Source: a virus (Duplodnaviria > Heunggongvirae > Uroviricota > Caudoviricetes). Taken from it: a stretch of 10,471 bases of DNA. The notes beneath the pieces were generated by a model that was not told where the DNA came from, searched no databases, and saw only the letters and a program-made list of their open reading frames with translations. The translations under genes were made by a program, and so were the position numbers. Location: positions 1 to 10,471 of IMG/VR virus record IMGVR_UViG_2675903650_000003. One strand, written 5' to 3'. The first letter of the stretch is position 1. Every line of letters begins with the position of its first letter. This document shows positions 1 through 10,471 of the stretch, piece by piece.

Positions 1-50
1 GTGGATCACTTTTCATCCGTCGTTGACACTCCCATGAAAAGACGCACGGT

Positions 51-359
51 ATGCGGGGCTGGGAATGTATTGTTGACGGTGTATCGGGCTTTGATATCAA
101 ACAAGATAACCAGCGAACCTTCTCAATTTCTCTCGAAAGAGCAAGCGGTACTGTTGAAGTTAAGTCCTTTGACATCCCGGTAACTATCTATCGCGATGTA
201 TTCAAATCTGGTACCGAATATCAACCTGGCGATACGGTCACATGGGGTGGTTGTATGTGGCATTGCAACGAGAAAACATGCGACAAGCCAGGTGAGACAG
301 GATCGAAAGGATGGACGCTTGCTGTTAAGAAAGGGCGAGATCTGAGGGATAAGCCATGA
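51..359 (+). CDS. Hypothetical small protein (102 aa) upstream of the connector gene; contains a C-x2-H-C-x4-C motif
   Basis: First ATG after the in-frame stop at 24-26. Its stop overlaps the ATG of the next gene (ATGA at 356-359), indicating translational coupling. The translation has protein-like composition. Shine-Dalgarno is weak. Function unknown. Confidence 0.45.
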   Translation: MRGWECIVDGVSGFDIKQDNQRTFSISLERASGTVEVKSFDIPVTIYRDVFKSGTEYQPGDTVTWGGCMWHCNEKTCDKPGETGSKGWTLAVKKGRDLRDKP

Positions 360-682
360 TTGAACTGGTGACGCTCGAAGAGGCTAAGTTGCATCTCCGT
401 ATTGACGACGATTACGGAGATTCAGACCTTACCTTAAAAATTCAGGGCGGCAGCGCAGCAATACTTTCCTACATTCAGGGAAGTCGCGCGTTAGTCGTGG
501 ATGATTCAGGAAAGCTTATTGATGGTGAACCGCTAACTCGCGTTCAGACGGCCCTGCTGGTTCTTCTTGGCTATCTTGACCGTAACCGCGGCGGCGAAGA
601 AGAAGAAAAGTTGAAACAGGGGGAACTTCCTTTTTCTGTATCAATGCTGATTTACGACCTCCGTAAGCCGACAATTATTTAA
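356..682 (+). CDS. Head-tail connector protein (phage gp6-like)
   Basis: 108-aa product with N-terminal LEEAKLHLRIDDDYGDSDL followed by helical ALLVLLGYLDRNRGG, which I recognise as the gp6-like connector pattern. Located immediately upstream of the head-tail adaptor and tail completion genes. Confidence 0.7.
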   Translation: MIELVTLEEAKLHLRIDDDYGDSDLTLKIQGGSAAILSYIQGSRALVVDDSGKLIDGEPLTRVQTALLVLLGYLDRNRGGEEEEKLKQGELPFSVSMLIYDLRKPTII

Positions 683-752
683 GGGGCATGTATGGCATGC
701 GCAGGATGTGCCAGACGGCGCGAGTGGATTAAAAAGTGGACGAGGATTGCCT

Positions 753-947
753 ATGAACGAGCAGCAGGTAAACGAACTAACGGCGGCACTGAAAGCGCTG
801 GCAACGTCTCAACTGAAACAGGCAGAAGCGATAAACCGTCTGGCTCAGGCGGATGAAACACTGATATCTCTGATTGCCAAAACGCTCGTTGATGAAATTG
901 ATGATGAGCTACCACCGCAGACCTATCTTGATGGTAAGCCGAGGTAA
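753..947 (+). CDS. Hypothetical small acidic protein (64 aa; alternative GTG start at 708 would give 79 aa)
   Basis: ATG at 753 is preceded by GAGG at 741-744. The GTG at 708 has AGGA only 2 nt upstream, so it is less likely. Product is helical and acidic with no recognisable motif. Stop at 945-947 lies 2 nt before the next gene start. Confidence 0.45.
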   Translation: MNEQQVNELTAALKALATSQLKQAEAINRLAQADETLISLIAKTLVDEIDDELPPQTYLDGKPR

Positions 948-949
948 TC

Positions 950-1282
950 GTGGAGTTTGCTAAACTGCGTCACCGCATCACTATTCAGCGACGAACAGCC
1001 ACCCAGTCACCAACCACAGGGGCAATGGAATACACCTGGAATGACCTTGCAGAGGTGTGGGGTAACGTGGTTGCCTCATCGGTCAGGGATTTCATTACAG
1101 CCCAGGCATCAAACGTAAAAGTAACGGCCAGAATCACTATCCGATACCGGGAAGATATCCAGGAGAAAGACCGTATTCTTTTCCGTGGCAAAATCTACAG
1201 CATTGAGGGGATTCTTCCTGACCCTGATAGTGGGCTCGAATATCTTACGCTTCCGTGCTCAGAGGGGGTAAGGGATGGTTGA
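950..1282 (+). CDS. Head-tail adaptor / head closure protein (SPP1 gp16-like, lambda FII-like position)
   Basis: GTG start at 950 preceded by GAGG at 941-944. 110-aa product with KDRILFRGKIYSIEGILPDPDSGLEYLTLPCSE, resembling the conserved core of head-tail joining proteins. Synteny supports the call. Confidence 0.65.
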   Translation: MEFAKLRHRITIQRRTATQSPTTGAMEYTWNDLAEVWGNVVASSVRDFITAQASNVKVTARITIRYREDIQEKDRILFRGKIYSIEGILPDPDSGLEYLTLPCSEGVRDG

Positions 1283-1760
1283 TAGCATTGATTTTAAGCT
1301 TGAAGGTGTAGATTCACTGCTTGGTAAGTTAGAAGCCATTACCTCAGAAACTAAGCGCAAAACAGGGCGCTCCGCACTGAGGAAAGCAGGAAACGTTATC
1401 GTAACTCAGATAAAGAGAAACGCAGAGCGACTCGACGATCCTCACACCGCACGTAGCATTGCTGATAACGCCGCGCTGCGCTGGAATGGTCGTATGTTTA
1501 AACAAACCGGTGATCTTGCCTTCAGGATAGGCATTCTTCAGGGAGCCGTTTTAAAAAAGCATCCAAGCACTGCGAAAGATGCCCCCACTCCTCACTGGCG
1601 TCTTCTTGAGTTTGGCACTGAAAAGATGGCAGCAAAACCGCTCGTTCGTGCTGCTGCAAATTCCAGACTGATAGAGGTTTTCAACACCTTCTCTGTTAAC
1701 TATGAAGCGGGGATTGACCGAGCTATCAAACGAGCACAGAAGAAAGGAGAGACGGCATGA
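1275..1760 (+). CDS. Tail completion protein, HK97 gp10 family (lambda Z-like position)
   Basis: 161-aa product containing WRLLEFGTEKMAAKPLVRAA, the EFGT signature I associate with the HK97 gp10 family. Overlaps the upstream gene by 8 nt and the downstream gene by 4 nt. Confidence 0.7.
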   Translation: MVDSIDFKLEGVDSLLGKLEAITSETKRKTGRSALRKAGNVIVTQIKRNAERLDDPHTARSIADNAALRWNGRMFKQTGDLAFRIGILQGAVLKKHPSTAKDAPTPHWRLLEFGTEKMAAKPLVRAAANSRLIEVFNTFSVNYEAGIDRAIKRAQKKGETA

Positions 1761-2122
1761 TTGCTCCTATTTTTCCTGTTTGCGCGTCGAGTCCTGAAGT
1801 CACTACTTTACTCGGAAGCAATCCGGTAAGAATTTACCCTTTCGGAATTCAGGACGATAATGTTGTTTATCCATACGCCGTCTGGCAGAACGTCAGCGGC
1901 TCTCCTGAAAATTTCCTTAACCAACGACCAGATGCGGACATTTATTCGCTTCAGGTTGATATCTATGCCGATACCCCTGATGAGGCGATTGCTGTAGCTC
2001 AAGCCATGCGTAATGCGATTGAGGTAAAAGCCAACATTGTTCGCTGGGGTAATCAGACGCGAGACCCTGAGACGCTCAGGTATCGATATTCTTTCGACGT
2101 TGACTGGATAGTCAACCGATAA
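1757..2122 (+). CDS. Tail terminator / tail completion protein (DUF3168-like, lambda U-like position)
   Basis: 121-aa product with RIYPFG...VVYPYAVW...LQVDIYA pattern. Position immediately upstream of the major tail protein gene. ATGA overlap with the preceding gene. Confidence 0.55.
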
Positions 2123-2134
2123 CAAACCTTCCAC

Positions 2135-2158
2135 AACCGGCCTTGAGCCGGTTTTTTT
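2135..2158 (+). terminator. Rho-independent terminator or attenuator between the tail terminator and major tail protein genes
   Basis: Perfect 7-bp stem AACCGGC (2135-2141) / GCCGGTT (2147-2153) with 5-nt loop, running into a run of seven T (2152-2158). Followed by GGAG at 2165-2168 and ATG at 2175. Confidence 0.6.
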
Positions 2159-2174
2159 ATACCCGGAGATAATT

Positions 2175-2672
2175 ATGTCAGTAGTGACTCAAGGCACTCA
2201 GATGTACGTTCTGAATAACGGCGTGGTCAGTGAAGTTGAATGTATTACTTCATTCTCACCAGGTAGTAGCCCGGCAGATCAAATTGAAGATACCTGTCTG
2301 AGCGAAACCAATACCCGTTCTTATAAAAAAGGTCTGCGCACCCCGGGTCAGGCAACCGTTGCTCTTAACGCCGACCCGGCAAACGCCAGTCACGTAATGC
2401 TGAGCAACCTGGCTGAATCAAGCGACCAGACCAACCTGACCTTCGCTATAGGCTGGGCCGATGGTACTGCAGATCCTACTGCTGCAACAGTCGGTGACCC
2501 TGATGCAGTTGATGGTCTGTCTCTTCCAGATACCCGTACCTGGTATGTATTCCAGGGTTATGTATCAGATTTCCCGTTTGATTTTCAGGCCAATACGGTA
2601 GTTCAGACTTCCGCGACTATTCAGCGTTCCGGCCAGGGCGTCTGGGTTCCTAAAGCACAGCCAACCAGCTAA
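2175..2672 (+). CDS. Major tail (tube) protein
   Basis: 165-aa product, rich in T/S/G/A/V and of likely beta-rich composition. Good RBS. Flanked upstream by a terminator and downstream by a stable hairpin. Occupies the lambda V position directly upstream of the G/GT chaperone and tape measure genes. Confidence 0.7.
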
Positions 2673-2692
2673 ACGTAATAATCTGCCAACTA

Positions 2693-2708
2693 GCGGGGGT
2701 AACCCCGC
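2693..2708 (+). promoter_or_regulatory. GC-rich hairpin with GUAA (GNRA) tetraloop downstream of the major tail protein gene; no U-tract
   Basis: GCGGGG (2693-2698) pairs with CCCCGC (2703-2708) around loop GTAA. It is followed by AATAAGAGAG, not a T-run, so it looks like an mRNA stabilising or processing structure rather than a full terminator. Confidence 0.4.
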
Positions 2709-2724
2709 AATAAGAGAGTAATAA

Positions 2725-3102
2725 ATGAAACTGACTCTGGATTCATTAAAACAGGCTGGTGCATTCACTGGGAGACCTGTTGAGAAGGAGATTACCTGGA
2801 AGCAGAGTGATAAGGAAATTACCGCTACCGTTTATATCCGACCTATGGGTTATCACGACGCAGTATCTACTGTTCTGTCAGCCGCGGGAAAGATTGATGG
2901 TGTTGCCGGACGTATCGCATCATCCATTTGTGATGAGAACGGGAATCCTGTTTTTACTGTTGCTGACATTACTGGTGAAGCAGACCCTGAGCGCGGTGCG
3001 CTCGACGGAAACCTTACCGTCGCTCTACTTGTCGCTATTCAGCAGGTTAACGACCTGGGAAAGACGAACTCAGCGCAGAAGACGAATTCTGGTGTGAATT
3101 AG
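2725..3102 (+). CDS. Tail assembly chaperone (lambda gpG-like), zero-frame product
   Basis: 125-aa acidic product directly upstream of the tape measure gene. RBS AAGAGAG at 2712-2718. Contains the slippery heptamer GGGAAAG near its 3' end. Confidence 0.8.
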   Translation: MKLTLDSLKQAGAFTGRPVEKEITWKQSDKEITATVYIRPMGYHDAVSTVLSAAGKIDGVAGRIASSICDENGNPVFTVADITGEADPERGALDGNLTVALLVAIQQVNDLGKTNSAQKTNSGVN

Positions 3103-3368
3103 TTCTCAACGGGATCGGCGGTCGCACCATTGCTGAAGCAAAAGAACGCGTTAGCGTTACAGAGTATCGCGACTGGGTTCTTTACCGTCAAAAGTACGGT
3201 AGCCTTAACGGAATGATGCGTACTGAGTGGGCCGCAGGCCTTATTTCTTCTGTGCTGGCTAACGTCAACCGTGGAAAAGATTCCCCCTCCTTCAAAGTAA
3301 CAGACTTCACACCACACATTAACGAGCCTTCCATTTCACTGGAGCAGGCTATGCAGGAGTGGACATAG
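2725..3368 (+). CDS. Tail assembly chaperone frameshift fusion product (lambda gpGT-like), made by -1 slip at 3057-3063
   Basis: The -1 frame (codons starting at positions divisible by 3) opens after a TAA at 3048-3050 and has no stop until TAG at 3366-3368, 2 nt before the tape measure ATG. Its translation reads ...DEFWCELVLNGIGGRTIAEAKERVSVTEYRDWVLYRQKYGSLNGMMRTEWAAGLISSVLANVNRGKDSPSFKVTDFTPHINEPSISLEQAMQEWT. No ATG-initiated + strand ORF of useful length covers 3103-3369. Confidence 0.65.
3057..3063 (+). promoter_or_regulatory. Programmed -1 ribosomal frameshift slippery heptamer G GGA AAG
   Basis: Heptamer GGGAAAG at 3057-3063 with zero-frame codons GGA (3058-3060) and AAG (3061-3063). 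This is the same heptamer as the lambda G/GT slip site. The -1 frame is open from 3051 to 3368. Confidence 0.65.
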
Positions 3369-3369
3369 C

Positions 3370-5895
3370 ATGGCTGGTAAATCCCTCGGAACGCTGACCA
3401 TTGACCTGATAGCTAAGGTTGGTGGATTTGTATCTGGTCTAAGCCAGGCTGAACGAGCATCTCAAAAATGGCGAAAACAGGTTCAGGCTGATGCAAAAGC
3501 GGCTGCGGTAGCATTTACTGGTTTTGCTACCGCGGCAAGTGCGGCAGCTATCGGTGTCGGTGTCGCCGGTTACAACCTGCTAAAAACAATGTCAAAACAG
3601 ATTACCGAAACAGACCGTTGGGCTAAGTCGCTCAATATGTCTACGCAGTCATTGCTTGCCTGGCAGTATGCAGCTGAAAAAGCTGGCGTATCCGGCGACC
3701 AGATGGCCGATATCTTCAAGGATATTGGCGATAAAATTGGCGATGCTGTACTGAATAAATCGGGTGAAGCAGTAGATGCTCTGAATGCACTCGGATTATC
3801 GGCTAAGAAATTATCCAGTGAATCACCAGATAAGCAGTTGCTGGCTATCAGCAATGCGCTCGGCAAGATTAAAACAAACGCTGAAAAGACCACAATCCTT
3901 GAAAGTCTTGGTAACGACCTTTCCAAGCTTCTCCCATTGCTTGATCAGGGAGGAGAAAAACTTCGTCAGTACATGGACGCGGCAAAACAGTTTGGCGTTG
4001 CCCCTGACGATGCTGATATCGAAAAGCTGGTAAAAGTAAACTCCCTGTTTGAGGACATGGAGACGCAGGTAAACGGTGTAAAAATTGAGATTGCCACCGG
4101 CCTGGCCAATGTTGACTTGTCAGGGTTACAGAACGCGATAACTGACATGGGGGATGTATTCAAAGATCCTCAGGTTATTCAGGGTTTGACAGACCTGGTT
4201 GGTGGTGTTGTTGATCTCGCGACCTGGCTTGTTAAAGTTGGTGCTGAAGCAGGGAAGCTAATTGACCTGTACAAAGGCGGTAAGGCTGTAGGTGACAATG
4301 CATCTGTAACTGATATAGAGCGCCGCCTCAACAATCTTAAAACTGATGTAGAAGATCAGGGATTCCTTGCCAGCTTTAACCGAATTGGTATGGACGTTGA
4401 CGGGAAAAAAGCTGAAATAGCGCAATTAGAACGCCGACTGTCCATCATGAAAGCCGGTAATAATCTTCCTCTCAGTCAGGCCACTGTAGGTGCGCCTTCT
4501 TCTTCCAGCAAAAATTATTCCTTAGGCTCAGGAGAAACTAACGGGAAAGCATCTCCAGATGCCGGGGCCAGAAAACTGGAGTCAGCATTTAAGTCTCTGG
4601 AAATGAGCTATCAGCGTCAGATAGCGCTGATTGACACAACTGGCAAAAAGAATCAGCAGGTAACCGAGCTTGAGAAGCTGCGTTTTGATTTTACATCTGG
4701 GAAATTAACAGGAATTAATGCAGCTCAGAAAGAGCGACTTGAGCAACTTGCTACTGAGATAGATCGCCTCAACTCACTTAAAAAAGCCAACGAAGAAAAT
4801 CTGAAACTTGTCGAATTTACCGCTAATTTACGTAAGCAAAATCAGAATGACCAGGCAGCTAATGATTCTGATTTTATCGGCGCAGGTATGGGAGACAAGA
4901 CTCGCCAGCGCATGAAGGAATTGCTGGATATCCATCGTAGTTTTCTCGACAGGCAGCAAGATCTACAGAAACAGTACCAAAGTGGTGATATAAGCAAATC
5001 GCTTTATGACCAGGAAACGGCAGCGTTACAGCAGGCGCTTGATGACCGTCTTGATATTCAGGAGGACTACTACAAAAAGTCTGATGCTCAGATGGGCGAC
5101 TGGCAAAGCGGGATAATGGACTCGTTGAACGATTATGCTGATAAATCAGCTGATTATTACCAGACTGCTGCAGATGCGATGACTTCTATTCTTGGTGGAG
5201 CAACCTCGGTTATTTCTGACAACCTTAATGACCTTGTGCACGGTGCAGAAGATTTAGGTGATTTCTTCAGTAATATTTTCTCTGGTCTTGGTGAAACAAT
5301 CATTAAAACCCTTTCTGATATGGCGGCGCAATGGCTGGTATATCAGGCAGTGCAATTGCTGGTAGGTAAATCCACTCAGGCAAGCGCAGCGGCATCAATG
5401 CTGGCAAACGCACAGGCATCATCTTTGCAGGCTCAAATCGCAGCATACGCATCGACAGCGGCAATTCCTATCGTTGGTCCCGCGCTTGCACCTGCAGCGA
5501 TGGCAACAGCTGCGGCAGTAACTGCACCACTTGTTGCAGCAGTTGGTACTTCTGCCCTGGCAGGTATGGCGCACGATGGTATTGATAGCGTCCCGGAAAC
5601 AGGAACATGGTTGCTCCAGAAAGGTGAGCGAGTTGTGACCTCTCAGACGTCAGCAAAGCTTGATGAAACACTGGACAGAGTAAATCAACAATCAACCAGC
5701 GGAGCAAGCTTCTCTCCCGTTATTAACATGAATGTTAACGGTGATCCGTCTGATACTCAGATCTCCATGATGAAGCAAGCCATGGCAGAGGGGGCAAAAC
5801 TTGGATATCAACAGGCAGCCAGCGACCTTGCCAGTGGGAAAGGTGACATTTCGAAAGCAATGATGCGCTGGAACACTAACAGGAGAACTGGTTAA
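3370..5895 (+). CDS. Tail tape measure protein (lambda gpH-like)
   Basis: 841-aa product. N-terminal region resembles the lambda-family tape measure domain. Long helical, coiled-coil-like middle. Ala/Gly-rich hydrophobic stretch near the C-terminus followed by WLLQKGERVV. Sits directly after G/GT and before the tail tip genes. Confidence 0.9.
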   Translation: MAGKSLGTLTIDLIAKVGGFVSGLSQAERASQKWRKQVQADAKAAAVAFTGFATAASAAAIGVGVAGYNLLKTMSKQITETDRWAKSLNMSTQSLLAWQYAAEKAGVSGDQMADIFKDIGDKIGDAVLNKSGEAVDALNALGLSAKKLSSESPDKQLLAISNALGKIKTNAEKTTILESLGNDLSKLLPLLDQGGEKLRQYMDAAKQFGVAPDDADIEKLVKVNSLFEDMETQVNGVKIEIATGLANVDLSGLQNAITDMGDVFKDPQVIQGLTDLVGGVVDLATWLVKVGAEAGKLIDLYKGGKAVGDNASVTDIERRLNNLKTDVEDQGFLASFNRIGMDVDGKKAEIAQLERRLSIMKAGNNLPLSQATVGAPSSSSKNYSLGSGETNGKASPDAGARKLESAFKSLEMSYQRQIALIDTTGKKNQQVTELEKLRFDFTSGKLTGINAAQKERLEQLATEIDRLNSLKKANEENLKLVEFTANLRKQNQNDQAANDSDFIGAGMGDKTRQRMKELLDIHRSFLDRQQDLQKQYQSGDISKSLYDQETAALQQALDDRLDIQEDYYKKSDAQMGDWQSGIMDSLNDYADKSADYYQTAADAMTSILGGATSVISDNLNDLVHGAEDLGDFFSNIFSGLGETIIKTLSDMAAQWLVYQAVQLLVGKSTQASAAASMLANAQASSLQAQIAAYASTAAIPIVGPALAPAAMATAAAVTAPLVAAVGTSALAGMAHDGIDSVPETGTWLLQKGERVVTSQTSAKLDETLDRVNQQSTSGASFSPVINMNVNGDPSDTQISMMKQAMAEGAKLGYQQAASDLASGKGDISKAMMRWNTNRRTG

Positions 5896-6368
5896 TGGCT
5901 AAAACGACCAGCATTAACTATCCGAATGATTACCTTCCTGTTCCATTGCAGGAAGGGTTCGGGTTAAAGCCAGTTAGCCCATTACTGAGAACCGAACTCA
6001 CATCCGGCAGGGCGAGGCAGAGGAGATTATATACTTCAACGCCAACTCAGGCCTCGGTTGCATGGCTGCTTACGGATCCGGAAGCTCAACTATTTGAGGT
6101 ATGGTTCAGGGACACCATTAAGGATGGCGCTGACTGGTTTAACATGCCTCTTCGATCTCCGTTAGGCGTTGTTGATGTTTATGTCTGTCGTTTCGTGGAT
6201 ATCTATGAGGGGCCGACAATTGAAGGCGGAAACTACTGGCGCTACACGGCCACGTTGGAATTGTGGGAAAGGCCTGTTCTGGCTCCTGGCTGGGCTGATT
6301 TTCCTGATTACATTATCAACAGCAGCATCATTGATATTGCGCTTAACAGGGAGTGGCCTGAGCCATGA
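5895..6368 (+). CDS. Minor tail protein, lambda gpM-like
   Basis: 157-aa product. Segment TQASVAWLLTDPEAQLFEVWFRDTIKDGADWFNMP aligns by eye with my recollection of the lambda gpM core (SVTLSVPREEATVLESFLEEHGGWKSFLWTP). TAATG overlap with the tape measure stop. First gene after the tape measure gene. Confidence 0.6.
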   Translation: MAKTTSINYPNDYLPVPLQEGFGLKPVSPLLRTELTSGRARQRRLYTSTPTQASVAWLLTDPEAQLFEVWFRDTIKDGADWFNMPLRSPLGVVDVYVCRFVDIYEGPTIEGGNYWRYTATLELWERPVLAPGWADFPDYIINSSIIDIALNREWPEP

Positions 6369-6847
6369 CGATTCTAAATAGGCTGTATGCCTCATCCGGG
6401 GAAGAGGTGATCATCGAAACCCTGCAAATAAACATCGGTACTGGTGTTTATTATCTTTGTAAAGGCTTCGATGACATCACCGCAACAACCGAAAGTGGCG
6501 TGGTGGTAACCTTTCAGGCTGCGGCTATTGATATTGCCCTTCCAGCAAGAAACAGCGATGGTACACAAGATTTGCAGTTTGCCATTGATAACATAGACGG
6601 GATTACTTCCACCGCCATACGGAATGCTCTGGATAACCTTTCAGAGGCATCGCTGACATATCGTAACTATGTCTCCACGGACCTCAGTGCTCCGGCATCT
6701 GTACCGTACACGCTGGCGATTAAAAGCGGGTCATGGACATCCATGCAGGCGCAGATTACTGCCGGATATATGAACGTTCTTGATACCGCATGGCCGCGCC
6801 ACCGATACACCCTCCCGTATTACCCCGGCCTTCGTTACATGAGTTAA
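6365..6847 (+). CDS. Minor tail protein, lambda gpL-like N-terminal domain only
   Basis: 160-aa product. VIIETLQINIGTGVYYLCKGF...VVVTFQAAAIDIALPARNSDGTQDLQFAIDN resembles my recollection of the lambda gpL N-terminal pattern (VVLWEIDLTEVGGERYFFCN...VTWQGRQYQPYPIQGSGFELNGKGTSTRPTLTVSN). It has a single Cys and no C-terminal Cys-rich region. ATGA overlap with the upstream gene. Confidence 0.55.
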   Translation: MTILNRLYASSGEEVIIETLQINIGTGVYYLCKGFDDITATTESGVVVTFQAAAIDIALPARNSDGTQDLQFAIDNIDGITSTAIRNALDNLSEASLTYRNYVSTDLSAPASVPYTLAIKSGSWTSMQAQITAGYMNVLDTAWPRHRYTLPYYPGLRYMS

Positions 6848-6856
6848 GGAGCAACA

Positions 6857-7237
6857 ATGTTCAATCCTGATAAATACCTTTCTGTCATATTGCAGAAGGG
6901 CGGTCGCACTTATCCTGAACTTGACTGCTTCGGCATAGTGAACGAGGTACGAAAAGACCTGGGGCTACCACTGTGGCCAGATTTTTCAGGTATAACAAAA
7001 GACGGCGGAGGTTTAAACCGAGAGGCCAGAAAGCTCATGCTTTCTCTGGAAAAATGCGCGCCGTGTATAGGTGCCGGTGCCGCCTGTTATTCCGGGTCAA
7101 CCGTTACTCATGTTGGTGTAGTCGTTGAAATTAACGGCCAATTGCATGTCGCAGAGTGCAACCCAGGAGTGAACGTTACCTTCCTTCCTGTCTCGCGTTT
7201 CAAACGTCGTTTTGTCAAAGTGGAGTTCTGGAAGTGA
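6857..7237 (+). CDS. Tail tip assembly protein with NlpC/P60-like papain-fold domain (lambda gpK-like, minimal)
   Basis: 126-aa product. LDCFGIV (Cys24, codon 6926-6928) matches the NlpC/P60 DCSG-type catalytic Cys motif. THVGVVV (His85, 7109-7111) and LHVAE (His97, 7145-7147) match the downstream His-containing motifs. Strong RBS AAGGAG at 6845-6850. Confidence 0.7.
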   Translation: MFNPDKYLSVILQKGGRTYPELDCFGIVNEVRKDLGLPLWPDFSGITKDGGGLNREARKLMLSLEKCAPCIGAGAACYSGSTVTHVGVVVEINGQLHVAECNPGVNVTFLPVSRFKRRFVKVEFWK

Positions 7238-9951
7238 CTATCAGAATTTATCCTTCACGGCTGCCTGGCGAGCCACTCGAAACTCATGAACATGGCGCAG
7301 TAACTATCCATCAGTGGCTTGCGAAGAACGTTCAGGGCTATAAGCCTGATATGAAGCACCCGATCACCGTTGATGTTGATGGAGAGAACATACCGCCTCA
7401 GGCATGGTTTGAATTTGCTATCAAATCAGACAGTGATGTCAGAATTTACCCTGTCCCTTATGGCGCTGTAGCTCTTGTCTGGATTGCCGTTGCTGTATCA
7501 GTTGCATCAGTCGCGTATGCTCTTTTCTTTGCTCCTGGTGTTGGTGACCTTGGCGGTTATTCATCAGGAACGGGAAACCCTCTTGATGTAAATCCTGCTA
7601 AAGCGAATAACGCAAAATTGGGCGACCCGATACGTGAGTTATTTGGACGAAGCCGTATTTATCCTGACTATGCAGTGCAGCCTGTAACAAGATTCTCAGT
7701 TGATGATCCAACGGTAATGACAGTTGAAATGTTTGTTGTTATGGGGAGAGGGCGTTTTTCATTTGGGGATGGCGATATTCGTGTAGGGTCAACTCCAATT
7801 GCTTCTCTTGGTGATGGGTTTAACTACACAGTGTATCAACCCGGGCAAAGCGTTAGTGGAGATCAACGATCAGAAAACTGGTTCAATTCCACAGAGGTTG
7901 GGGGAACCGCATCTGGTTCTGGTCTTGATATGGCGCAAACCGCGCCGGACACGGAAGATGTTGTTGCTAATTCGCTAACCGTTTCCGGACCAACAATAAC
8001 ATTTAATGGGCTGAGCACGGATGATGGAGATGAAACAACAAATGATCTTCCAGATACATGGACTGTTGGTGCAATTGTTGAGTTAATTGTTCCTGATTCC
8101 TATGTGGTAACTAATGATGGTGCTTACAGCAGAATTACCAGTGACACGCTGGAGGAAATAGCTCCTTATGTTGGGATGCCTGTAACTCTCTGGTACAACA
8201 GCATTGATTACCAACTATTCATTGCTGATTTTATACCTCACTCTGAGCCAGTCGGCGAAGATGTGATTACCGCATCAATAACCCTCGCTTACGATAGCGC
8301 CACTGGAACTCCGTTCACCGGGATTCCTGAAGGTTATGTCAGGCTATCTGTTTCCCATTCCGGAAGCGAATATAAGATTCTTGATATAGATGGTAGCTCT
8401 GTAACTCTGGAGCGGGTTATTGATGGCAGCGTTGATCCGTCATGGCCTGGATTTTCACCGCGCACAGTTCTTGATTTTGAAGCCAACGGTTTAAATGAGA
8501 ACGATAGTTGGATGGGACCTTTTCTGGCGTGCCCAGAAAATGAAGTTGTTGATATGTTCGAAGTAAACTTCTTCTTCCCAAACGGGATTTGTGGGTATAA
8601 CAAAAAAGGGAACAAACAATACCGTGAGGTAAAGTGGGAGATTCAGTACCGGCCATATGGTTCAGGCGTCGGGTGGATAAGTAAAACCGGATCGTACTAC
8701 CTCCAGAACATTAACGGACTGGGATTTACCGAAAGAATCACGCTGGATACGCCTGCGCTAGTAGAGGTGAGAGCTCGCCGCACGAACGAGCAGGGACAGA
8801 ATAACAGTCGCGATAACATGTACTGGCAGTCATTGCGAGGACGTTTGTTGTCACGGCCAGCATCGTATACTGGCGTCACCACAATTGCGGTTACTGTGGA
8901 AACTGGCGGTAAACTGGCAGCGCAGTCAGATCGCCGCGTAAACGTTGTAGCCACGCGAGTTTATGATTCTGGTGTGTCAAGGAGCATTTCTGGTGCTCTG
9001 TATCATATAGGTAATGAGTTGGGGCTAGCGATGGACCGTGAAGCTATTGACTCACTAGAAACTACTTACTGGACCCCTGGCAGTGAATTCTTTGACTATG
9101 CCACTACGGATTCTGTTTCTGCGCTGGAGATGCTTCAGAAGGTGACAAATGCAGGAAAAAGTTACTTCCTTCTTACCGATGGTCTGGCATCTGTAGCAAG
9201 GGAAGGTGTGAAAACGTGGACTGGAATAATCAGCCCACAGGAGATGACTGATCCGCTTCAGACTGCTTTCGTTGCTCCGTCAGCAGATGACTATGATGGT
9301 GTGGATGTTACATATATCAACGGCACTACATGGGCTGAAGAGACGGTGCAGTGCAGAACATCAGATAACCCAACTCCGGTAAAGATTGAGGACTATACGC
9401 TTGATGGTGTTCTTGACCAGGACCGTGCTTATCAGATAGGTATGCGACGTCTGATGAAGTACCTTCAGCAACGTTTGACTCATACCACAACAACGGAAAT
9501 GGATGCTCTCTGTTATAACGTTGGCGACAGGGTAGTATTCACGGATGATATTCCTGGTAGCAAAACAATAAGCACGTTGATTGAGGATATGAGTACAAGT
9601 GATGGCGTAACGACTATTACAGTATCAGAACCACTTGACTGGACATTCAACAACCCACGTGCATTGATACGCTATCAGGATGGTTCTGCTTCGGATTTGC
9701 TGGCAGCTACAAGGGTAAATGAATATGTTCTATCAGTAATAGAACAAGCAAAATTCAGCAATATCATGCTAAACGCCCCATCCATTGAATCGCCTCGTCT
9801 GATTTTCTGCGAGTCATCCCGTGTTGGATATAGCGCATTAATTTCAGAGATAGCACCGCAATCTGATGGAACATGTCAGGTAACGGCAAAAGAGTATCGC
9901 GACACTTTCTATCAGTACGATAACGCTACCTACCCCGGCAATGTAGCTTAA
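7234..9951 (+). CDS. Tail tip protein: lambda gpI-like N-terminal region fused in frame to a gpJ-like central tail fibre / host specificity protein
   Basis: Probable GTG start at 7234, overlapping the upstream stop (GTGA) with GGAG at 7222-7225. The track's ATG at 7156 lies inside the K-like gene. Residues 1-80 look ubiquitin-like, followed by a hydrophobic segment GAVALVWIAVAVSVASVAYALFFAPGV (about 7462-7545), then NNAKLGDPIRELFGRSRIY, which resembles lambda gpI (NVLPVLYGEMRVGS). The rest is a long beta-rich protein with J-like motifs (RRTNEQGQNNSRDNMYWQSLRGRLL). No stop codon separates the two parts. Confidence 0.7.
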   Translation: MTIRIYPSRLPGEPLETHEHGAVTIHQWLAKNVQGYKPDMKHPITVDVDGENIPPQAWFEFAIKSDSDVRIYPVPYGAVALVWIAVAVSVASVAYALFFAPGVGDLGGYSSGTGNPLDVNPAKANNAKLGDPIRELFGRSRIYPDYAVQPVTRFSVDDPTVMTVEMFVVMGRGRFSFGDGDIRVGSTPIASLGDGFNYTVYQPGQSVSGDQRSENWFNSTEVGGTASGSGLDMAQTAPDTEDVVANSLTVSGPTITFNGLSTDDGDETTNDLPDTWTVGAIVELIVPDSYVVTNDGAYSRITSDTLEEIAPYVGMPVTLWYNSIDYQLFIADFIPHSEPVGEDVITASITLAYDSATGTPFTGIPEGYVRLSVSHSGSEYKILDIDGSSVTLERVIDGSVDPSWPGFSPRTVLDFEANGLNENDSWMGPFLACPENEVVDMFEVNFFFPNGICGYNKKGNKQYREVKWEIQYRPYGSGVGWISKTGSYYLQNINGLGFTERITLDTPALVEVRARRTNEQGQNNSRDNMYWQSLRGRLLSRPASYTGVTTIAVTVETGGKLAAQSDRRVNVVATRVYDSGVSRSISGALYHIGNELGLAMDREAIDSLETTYWTPGSEFFDYATTDSVSALEMLQKVTNAGKSYFLLTDGLASVAREGVKTWTGIISPQEMTDPLQTAFVAPSADDYDGVDVTYINGTTWAEETVQCRTSDNPTPVKIEDYTLDGVLDQDRAYQIGMRRLMKYLQQRLTHTTTTEMDALCYNVGDRVVFTDDIPGSKTISTLIEDMSTSDGVTTITVSEPLDWTFNNPRALIRYQDGSASDLLAATRVNEYVLSVIEQAKFSNIMLNAPSIESPRLIFCESSRVGYSALISEIAPQSDGTCQVTAKEYRDTFYQYDNATYPGNVA

Positions 9952-9967
9952 TCCAAACATCAATATT

Positions 9968-9992
9968 ACCCGCTACGGCGGGTTTTTCTCTT
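9968..9992 (+). terminator. Rho-independent terminator downstream of the I/J-like gene
   Basis: Stem ACCCGC (9968-9973) / GCGGGT (9978-9983) with loop TACG, followed by TTTTTCTCTT. Next gene has GAGG at 9995-9998 and ATG at 10004. Confidence 0.6.
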
Positions 9993-10003
9993 ATGAGGCA
10001 AAT

Positions 10004-10465
10004 ATGACGACTTATAATACTGGCAATCCGCTGGGGTCTTCTGCTGCAAAAGATTTGTACGATAACGCCCAGAACTTCGATCATCTTTCTAATGATCAAT
10101 CCAATGAGTTATGGCCTGATCGTTTTGGTAATCCACGTCTTACTTGGCATGGTATGGAGTCAAAGTACAAAGAATCATTGTCAAAAATGGGTTGGATACT
10201 AATAAAATCATTTCAGGTTGGCGCAGAGATAACCTTGACTAATCAGGCATTGCACGACGAAACCTCTGGCGAGTATTACCGTTGGGATGGTGTATTACCT
10301 AAAACCGTTCCTGCTGGCTCTACGCCAGAAACGACAGGTGGGATTGGATTAGGTGCGTGGGTTAGCGTGGGTGATGCTTCATTGCGTGGAGATCTACTCA
10401 GCTTAGATGGTGAAAAATATATCGGTATCTGTCCTGACATTGCGGTGATGCTGCCAACTTACTGA
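10004..10465 (+). CDS. Hypothetical protein resembling the N-terminal anchor region of a tail fibre or tailspike (153 aa)
   Basis: Good RBS and ATG. AT-rich relative to upstream genes. Motifs GNPLGSSAAKDLYDNAQNFDHLSN and GIGLGAWVSVGDASLRGDLLS are reminiscent of N-terminal adaptor regions of phage fibres or spikes, but this is recalled similarity, not verified. In-frame TGA at 10463-10465, only 6 nt before the window ends. Confidence 0.5.
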   Translation: MTTYNTGNPLGSSAAKDLYDNAQNFDHLSNDQSNELWPDRFGNPRLTWHGMESKYKESLSKMGWILIKSFQVGAEITLTNQALHDETSGEYYRWDGVLPKTVPAGSTPETTGGIGLGAWVSVGDASLRGDLLSLDGEKYIGICPDIAVMLPTY

Positions 10466-10471
10466 TTTAGT

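Follow-up and report, generated by a model that had tools for sequence, protein, structure and literature searches.

The window analyzed here, a stretch of 10,471 nt that covers positions 1 to 10,471 of the IMG/VR virus record IMGVR_UViG_2675903650_000003 (Caudoviricetes), very probably contains a genuine programmed -1 frameshift site of the G/GT type, which, judging from sequence comparisons, belongs to a siphophage tail module of the HK022/D3 kind. All defining features of the G/GT family that can be read at the sequence level are present. Most ribosomes that translate the chaperone gene at 2725-3102 would keep the frame and produce the 125-aa protein G, whereas a minority would slip back by one base while decoding the heptamer G GGA AAG at 3057-3063, where the tRNAs for Gly and Lys would re-pair with GGG and AAA. 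The slipped ribosomes would continue in the -1 frame up to the TAG at 3366-3368 and yield a 214-aa GT fusion, which would consist of residues 1-113 of G and a T domain of 101 residues. By analogy with phage lambda, the G part would coat the product of the next gene downstream, the tape measure protein, and the T part would recruit the tail tube protein, whose gene directly precedes G; both G and GT would be absent from the finished tail. The slipping itself, its rate, and the protein contacts are what we infer here; the frameshift rate would be a few per cent if the lambda case is taken as a guide.

Tail module and overlapping reading frames

The major tail tube gene (2175-2672, plus strand), a lambda-like member of Pfam family PF16460 (Phage_TTP_11; E = 9e-66), lies directly upstream of the gene of the G-type tail assembly chaperone (2725-3102, plus strand; PF16459, PHROG 1749), which starts with ATG, ends with TAG at 3100-3102, and encodes the zero-frame product of 125 aa. 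The tape measure gene (3370-5895, plus strand; 841 aa; PF09718, Tape_meas_lam_C; E = 6e-9) begins with an ATG located 1 nt past the T stop and is followed by genes that match DUF1833, a gpJ-like protein, and a tail-spike N-terminal domain in Pfam. The ORF list and the Pfam matches together give the gene order tube, G, T, and tape measure, which is the position that characterizes G/GT pairs. The positions of the chaperone stop and the tape measure start in the original prediction agree with both the ORF list and the sequence, but the interval between them (3103-3369) measures 267 nt and not 266 nt, and it is not devoid of conventional plus-strand ORFs as had been claimed, because a 51-aa ORF with an ATG start is present in the -1 frame (3213-3368).

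In the -1 frame, a TAA at 3048-3050 is followed by an open stretch up to the TAG at 3366-3368, as predicted; from 3051 onward, this frame contains no ATG, GTG, or TTG until the ATG at 3213. The frame that encodes T overlaps the 3' end of G and has no start of its own nearby, which is the arrangement found in G/GT pairs, and zero and -1 frames are both open over 52 nt (3051-3102, plus strand). Within this overlap lies the slippery heptamer (3057-3063, plus strand), the candidate site of the -1 shift by its register with G, its invariance, and its match to lambda. The zero-frame codons begin at 3058 (GGA) and 3061 (AAG), which places the heptamer in the X XXY YYZ register that the original prediction had assigned to it. 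The putative T-type extension (3063-3368, plus strand), identified by its matches to PF06223 and PHROG 337 and by its wobble phase, comprises 101 codons (3063-3365) and the terminal TAG.

The conceptual GT fusion of 214 aa contains G residues 1-113 (ending in QQVNDLGK), followed by the 101 residues DELSAEDEFWCELVLNGIGGRTIAEAKERV...QEWT. The comparison of this fusion with chaperone families, which had been proposed as a check, gave matches above the gathering cut-offs for both parts. The G part matches PF16459 (Phage_TAC_13) with 118.7 bits (cut-off 28.8; E = 1.5e-34) over the full profile (1-98 of 98; fusion residues 6-109), and the T part matches PF06223 (Phage_tail_T) with 41.4 bits (cut-off 25.9; E = 2e-10) over profile positions 1-70 of 73 (fusion residues 144-211). 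The assignments in PHROGs agree, with family 1749 (tail assembly chaperone) covering fusion residues 1-119 and families 337 and 5297 (tail protein) covering residues 119-213, starting six residues past the slip; no NCBIfam model matched the fusion, and a sequence search of PDB returned no solved relative. The conserved motif EFWCELVLNGIGGRTI is encoded at 3084-3131, across the stop codon of G and before the first -1 start at 3213. Because this T motif precedes any start codon of the -1 frame, there is no other route to the T residues, and, as far as the reading frames reveal, translation of the T extension is possible only when it forms the C-terminal portion of the 214-aa GT fusion.

Further downstream, the ORF in the position of gpK (6857-7237) encodes 126 aa with a weak CHAP match (E = 0.008). 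Its counterpart in an E. coli relative (L002, 11568-11948) is labeled 'nitrite transporter' in RefSeq NZ_CP136025.1, which looks like a misannotation; an element of the IS3 family (IS1203) is located just upstream of the gene in the same record. The longest ORF of the gpJ-like protein (7156-9951) starts with GTG at 7156, encodes 931 aa, and shares 82 nt with the gene before it. The start used in public gene calls is the equivalent of 7234, with 905 aa and a 4-nt overlap with the upstream stop, and it is more plausible than that at 7156.

Conservation of the slip site and its surroundings

A megablast search of positions 2600-3500 against the phage collection returned no match and made a protein-level search necessary. 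Among the phage records, 78 had a match at the protein level, headed by HK022, HK140, mEpX2, and mEp235 (70% identity); these were followed by matches of the fusion in Klebsiella phages (65%) and, at 61.5%, in Pseudomonas phage D3. Another 102 loci came from scanning genomes and viral contigs. The comparison set consisted of 107 homologous regions (the window and 106 loci), of which 91 were distinct (the window and 90 relatives).

Without exception, the 107 regions, including the window, have their T match shifted by -1 with respect to G. The heptamer GGGAAAG occurs in register in every one of the 91 distinct regions, at an offset of 332 or 335 from the G start, and is retained down to 58% identity in G and 44% identity in T. 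The segment TGGGAAAG is invariant in all 90 distinct relatives, its three wobble positions included. Alignment entropy is zero at 3056-3063, also at the zero-frame wobble positions 3057, 3060, and 3063, whereas wobble positions near the heptamer have entropies of 1.0-1.7 bits. The reading frames around the heptamer are more flexible: the offset of the zero-frame stop ranges from 348 to 486 among the relatives, the upstream stop of the -1 frame shifts as well, and the overlap of the two frames varies from 22 to 217 nt, with the heptamer always inside. The indels just 3' of the heptamer measure 3 or 6 nt and are multiples of 3.

When the region is scanned in 30-nt windows, variability peaks at the third codon position of frame 0 in all windows within 2725-3069 and at that of frame -1 in all windows within 3055-3354; the change from phase 2 to phase 1 falls into the window 3055-3084, at the heptamer. 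According to the alignment, both the heptamer and the -1 frame, starting with the slip site, are under purifying selection. Among the distant relatives, a Synechococcus phage, Psp6, and an Acinetobacter phage also possess GGGAAAG, whereas other heptamers occupy the same spot in PAJU2 and vB_Pae_U7 (AAAAAAC) and in Vibrio phage H8 (CCCAAAG), just before a conserved E-x-W-x-E-L-V-L-x-G-I-G-G motif. It is apparently the slipperiness and not one particular sequence that is conserved, as predicted for a functional shift site.

On the plus strand of the window, GGGAAAG is present in five copies (2886, 3057, 4543, 5836, and 6265) compared with 1.26 expected, a number reached in only 3 of 200 shuffles; all copies in the window are on this strand, and their excess may stem from coding sequences rich in Gly-Lys or Gly-Glu/Lys. 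An ORF in -1 register exists for two of the copies (2886 and 3057), of which the one at 3057 alone is conserved; none of the three copies outside G (4543, 5836, and 6265) is in -1 register with its ORF. A rough estimate by hand, based on the approximately 17 in-register positions in the 52-nt overlap, gives a chance of about 7% for any XXXYYYZ heptamer and of about 0.1% for exactly GGGAAAG.

The copy at 2886-2892 (GCG GGA AAG, in -1 register within G) was considered as a second programmed site and rejected. It is kept in only 4 of the 90 relatives, and slippage would lead into GAT TGA, a stop after two codons that would leave a truncated protein of about 57 aa; this copy is probably a chance occurrence with a small abortive cost. 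Transcriptional slippage is unlikely, because a run of three A residues is, by reasoning, too short.

Elements that might stimulate the shift are inconspicuous. No significant fold was detected in four stretches 3' of the heptamer when minimum free energies were compared with those of shuffled sequences (z = -1.65 for 3064-3110, +0.22 for 3064-3130, -0.70 for 3064-3160, and +0.91 for 3068-3120), and, by folding energy, there is no stable hairpin or pseudoknot 5-9 nt past the heptamer. A weak Shine-Dalgarno-like AGCAGGT (3041-3047, plus strand), located 9 nt 5' of the heptamer, is a possible 5' stimulator; its predicted duplex with the 3' end of 16S rRNA has an energy of -4.6 kcal/mol compared with a control median of -3.5 kcal/mol. 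At the same spot, approximately 23 of the 91 regions carry a full AGGAGGT and approximately 25 carry AGGAAGT, and the Glu codon at the element is GAG in 23 and GAA in 25 of the relatives; lambda, Psp6, and the Acinetobacter phage lack the element altogether. It seems rather improbable that the element, weakened to AGCAGGT in the lineage of the window, acts as a stimulator in the manner of dnaX and that lineages tune their G:GT ratio through it and not through the invariant heptamer. With no downstream structure and a weak Shine-Dalgarno-like element, the rate would depend, as far as visible, on the heptamer alone. Lambda likewise reportedly needs no strong stimulator, a point attributed to Levin and coworkers in 1993.

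Present-day use and annotation of the locus

The window is almost identical over its full length to regions of CP061272.1 (L119; 99.98%) and LM996875.1 (L121; 99.96%), where it adjoins the genes sdiA-uvrY-uvrC-pgsA, which are 100% identical to those of E. coli. According to the gene calls of LM996875.1, a phage integrase and a complete IS21 element (IstA/IstB) are located immediately upstream of the window, and the InsA gene of an IS1 element adjoins its downstream end; CP061272.1 has an IstB call in the same place on the upstream side. The stretches noted at the edges are 8828-9607 and 20144-20327 in the coordinates of these two loci. The intact relatives L120 (99.93% identity) and L122 (93%) have genes for a terminase, a protease-capsid fusion, and a portal protein upstream. 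The first ORF of the window (51-359) corresponds to the C-terminal 102 aa of a 294-aa gene product in L120, with a sub-threshold match to CBM_5_12, and the last ORF (10004-10465; Tail_spike_N) corresponds to the first 153 aa of the tail spike of L122, which has at least 631 aa. Insertion sequences at the boundaries, the absence of head genes, and the cut ORFs at both ends identify the window as a recently truncated prophage remnant.

Since this copy lies in a defective prophage, its expression in the present host is uncertain. There is a somewhat better than even prospect that expression or use of G and GT has ceased here and that the heptamer persists as a fossil signal only because the decay of the IS-truncated remnant is recent. 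This would agree with the location of the window between IS21 and IS1, with the lack of the terminase, capsid, and portal genes of intact relatives, and with the truncation of longer genes at 51-359 and 10004-10465; also the identity of 99.93% to the intact phage L120 (window positions 23-10444) leaves little time for decay. However, all tail ORFs in the window are intact, and the remnant recurs in CP061272.1, in LM996875.1, and in 20 further similar places among the contigs read. Although intact, the frameshift signal has probably lost its role in virion production in this host. The question of its fate concerns present-day use in one host and not the identity of the element, and loss of use is therefore compatible with a genuine G/GT frameshift site.

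Public annotations of the locus differ in their treatment of T. In L119 and L120, no gene is called between G and the tape measure gene. In E. coli relatives, PGAP annotates the 51-aa ATG fragment as 'phage tail assembly protein T' (6611-6766 in L002); the fragment is called in L121 as well (12858-13013), and in L122, an 84-aa ORF (12760-13014) is called from a non-standard ATC, which is equivalent to position 3114 of the window. No joined frameshift CDS was found in the public annotations of the close relatives examined. The expectation that T would escape standard ORF calling is borne out by these empty, 51-aa, or 84-aa calls.

Taken at face value, such calls would make T a separate small gene with its own initiation at the ATG at 3213 (51 aa) or at the non-standard ATC at 3114 (84 aa), translated without any frameshift, which is very unlikely. 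The ORF from ATG 3213 to 3368 does exist, its start codon is present in 79 of the 90 relatives and is followed by another ATG in 84 of 90, and fragments of this kind are annotated by PGAP and other callers; nevertheless, the two Met codons are just conserved residues of the domain. The 51-aa fragment alone barely passes PF06223 (28.2 bits compared with a cut-off of 25.9), but its match starts at profile position 20 of 73, without the first quarter of the domain. The 50 codons at 3063-3212, which encode peptides such as DELSAEDEFWCELVLNGIGGR in the -1 frame, show the wobble periodicity of this frame and include the best-conserved T motif, although the -1 frame has no ATG, GTG, or TTG before 3213, and no Shine-Dalgarno-like sequence is discernible by eye in front of that position (ACGGTAGCCTTAACGGAATG). 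A separate gene would also leave unexplained why the heptamer is invariant, with three synonymous sites, and why differing slippery heptamers occupy the same place in distant relatives. The ATG ORF at 3213-3368 is best described as a piece of the T extension and not as a gene of its own.

That the minus strand at 3099-3317 codes for a 72-aa protein and the -1 frame of the plus strand is open by chance can be dismissed almost completely: this ORF is present as originally listed, has a GTG start, and its homologous frame is open in 56 of the 90 relatives, but it is interrupted by one or two in-frame stops in the other 34, has no match in Pfam, NCBIfam, or PHROGs, has its third positions in phase 2 whereas the variable phase in this region is 1 (the third position of the plus-strand -1 frame), and lies opposite a plus-strand frame with a significant family match (the 41.4 bits of the T domain); antisense frames of real genes often remain open as an artefact. 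Neither of the two similarity results that had been named as refuting the original prediction was obtained, since the -1 extension does resemble a T domain and the minus-strand ORF has no homologue in these three databases.

The correct description of the G/GT gene is a two-piece CDS with 2725..3063 joined to 3063..3368 by ribosomal slippage. The practical value of this assignment lies only in the repair of annotations, not in new biology; such repair is useful because the pipelines call either nothing or a fragment of 51 or 84 aa at the position of T. A wobble phase that changes at an invariant heptamer is a signature readable by computation alone and could be used for finding such sites automatically, with the present locus as a possible worked example.

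Comparison with known frameshift systems

The closest described case is the gene pair gp13/gp14 of phage HK022 (GenBank AF069308), which is orthologous to the G/GT locus of the window; the fusions are 70% identical, and the G parts belong to the same Pfam family (PF16459). In that record, gp14 is entered as a two-piece CDS that is 'presumed to be expressed as the downstream part of a translational frameshift product'. The segment CTGGGAAAG is found in HK022 at the same offset from the G start as in the window, and straight after the heptamer, the -1 frame reads DxELSAEDEFWCELVLNGIGGRTIAEA in both. The two loci differ by a one-codon deletion in the window just 3' of the heptamer and in the length of the zero-frame product, which stops 37 nt past the heptamer in the window (125 aa) and extends to 161 aa in HK022; moreover, the copy in the window is located in a defective prophage. 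The same arrangement as in HK022 occurs in HK140, mEpX2, mEp235, and Pseudomonas phage D3 (orf17/orf18; fusion identity 61.5%).

The programmed -1 frameshift of lambda G/GT is reportedly the work of Levin, Hendrix, and Casjens in 1993 and of Xu, Hendrix, and Duda in 2004, and the latter are said to have established as a general rule that dsDNA phages conserve a frameshift in their tail chaperone genes. The lambda site, close to the 3' end of G, reads GCG GGA AAG in the register of that gene, and the annotated coordinate of T begins at the last G of the heptamer. The order of the tube, G, T, and tape measure genes is the same as in the window. Lambda gpT matches PF06223 with 54.1 bits, which places the T parts of lambda and the window in one Pfam family, whereas their G parts belong to different families (PF06894 in lambda and PF16459 in the window) and the T parts differ in length (144 aa in lambda and 101 aa in the window). 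In a pairwise BLASTP comparison, the similarity of the T part to lambda gpT was marginal (E = 0.031 over 38 residues), so that homology to lambda T is based on the shared Pfam profile.

The predicted match to the lambda slip site holds for both heptamer and register, and GGGAAAG has been reported as the slippery sequence of lambda G/GT also in the literature (PMC3296357). G_GGA_AAG is highly shift-prone in E. coli (PMC5009743), and the lambda heptamer encodes Gly-Lys in both frames (PMC3296357). In lambda, the zero frame is held about 96% of the time, which leaves about 4% GT, the G:GT ratio matters for phage yield, and thiolation of tRNA-Lys(UUU) alters the frameshift rate (PMC3296357). The G part of the lambda proteins binds the tape measure protein and the T part the major tail protein, and both are released from the assembly (PMC5009743); both products are required for tail assembly and are missing from the finished virion (PMC5009743, PMC3296357). 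Since heptamer, register, gene order, and T family are all shared with lambda, the site in the window most likely works alike.

There is also a partial likeness to the dnaX gene of E. coli. The -1 frameshift of E. coli dnaX takes place at A AAA AAG, with a Shine-Dalgarno-like stimulator on the 5' side and a hairpin on the 3' side. Both cases involve a -1 shift on a heptamer that ends in A AAG and is decoded by a single tRNA-Lys, and in some relatives of the window, an AGGAGGT is present approximately 9 nt upstream, at a spacing near that of the dnaX stimulator. By contrast, the window has no significant 3' hairpin, its upstream element is degenerate and absent in several relatives, and its shifted product would be an extension and not a truncation. 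The probable G/GT frameshift of the window is of an already known kind and a close relative of an annotated case, because HK022 gp13/gp14 is annotated as a frameshift pair and lambda possesses the same heptamer.
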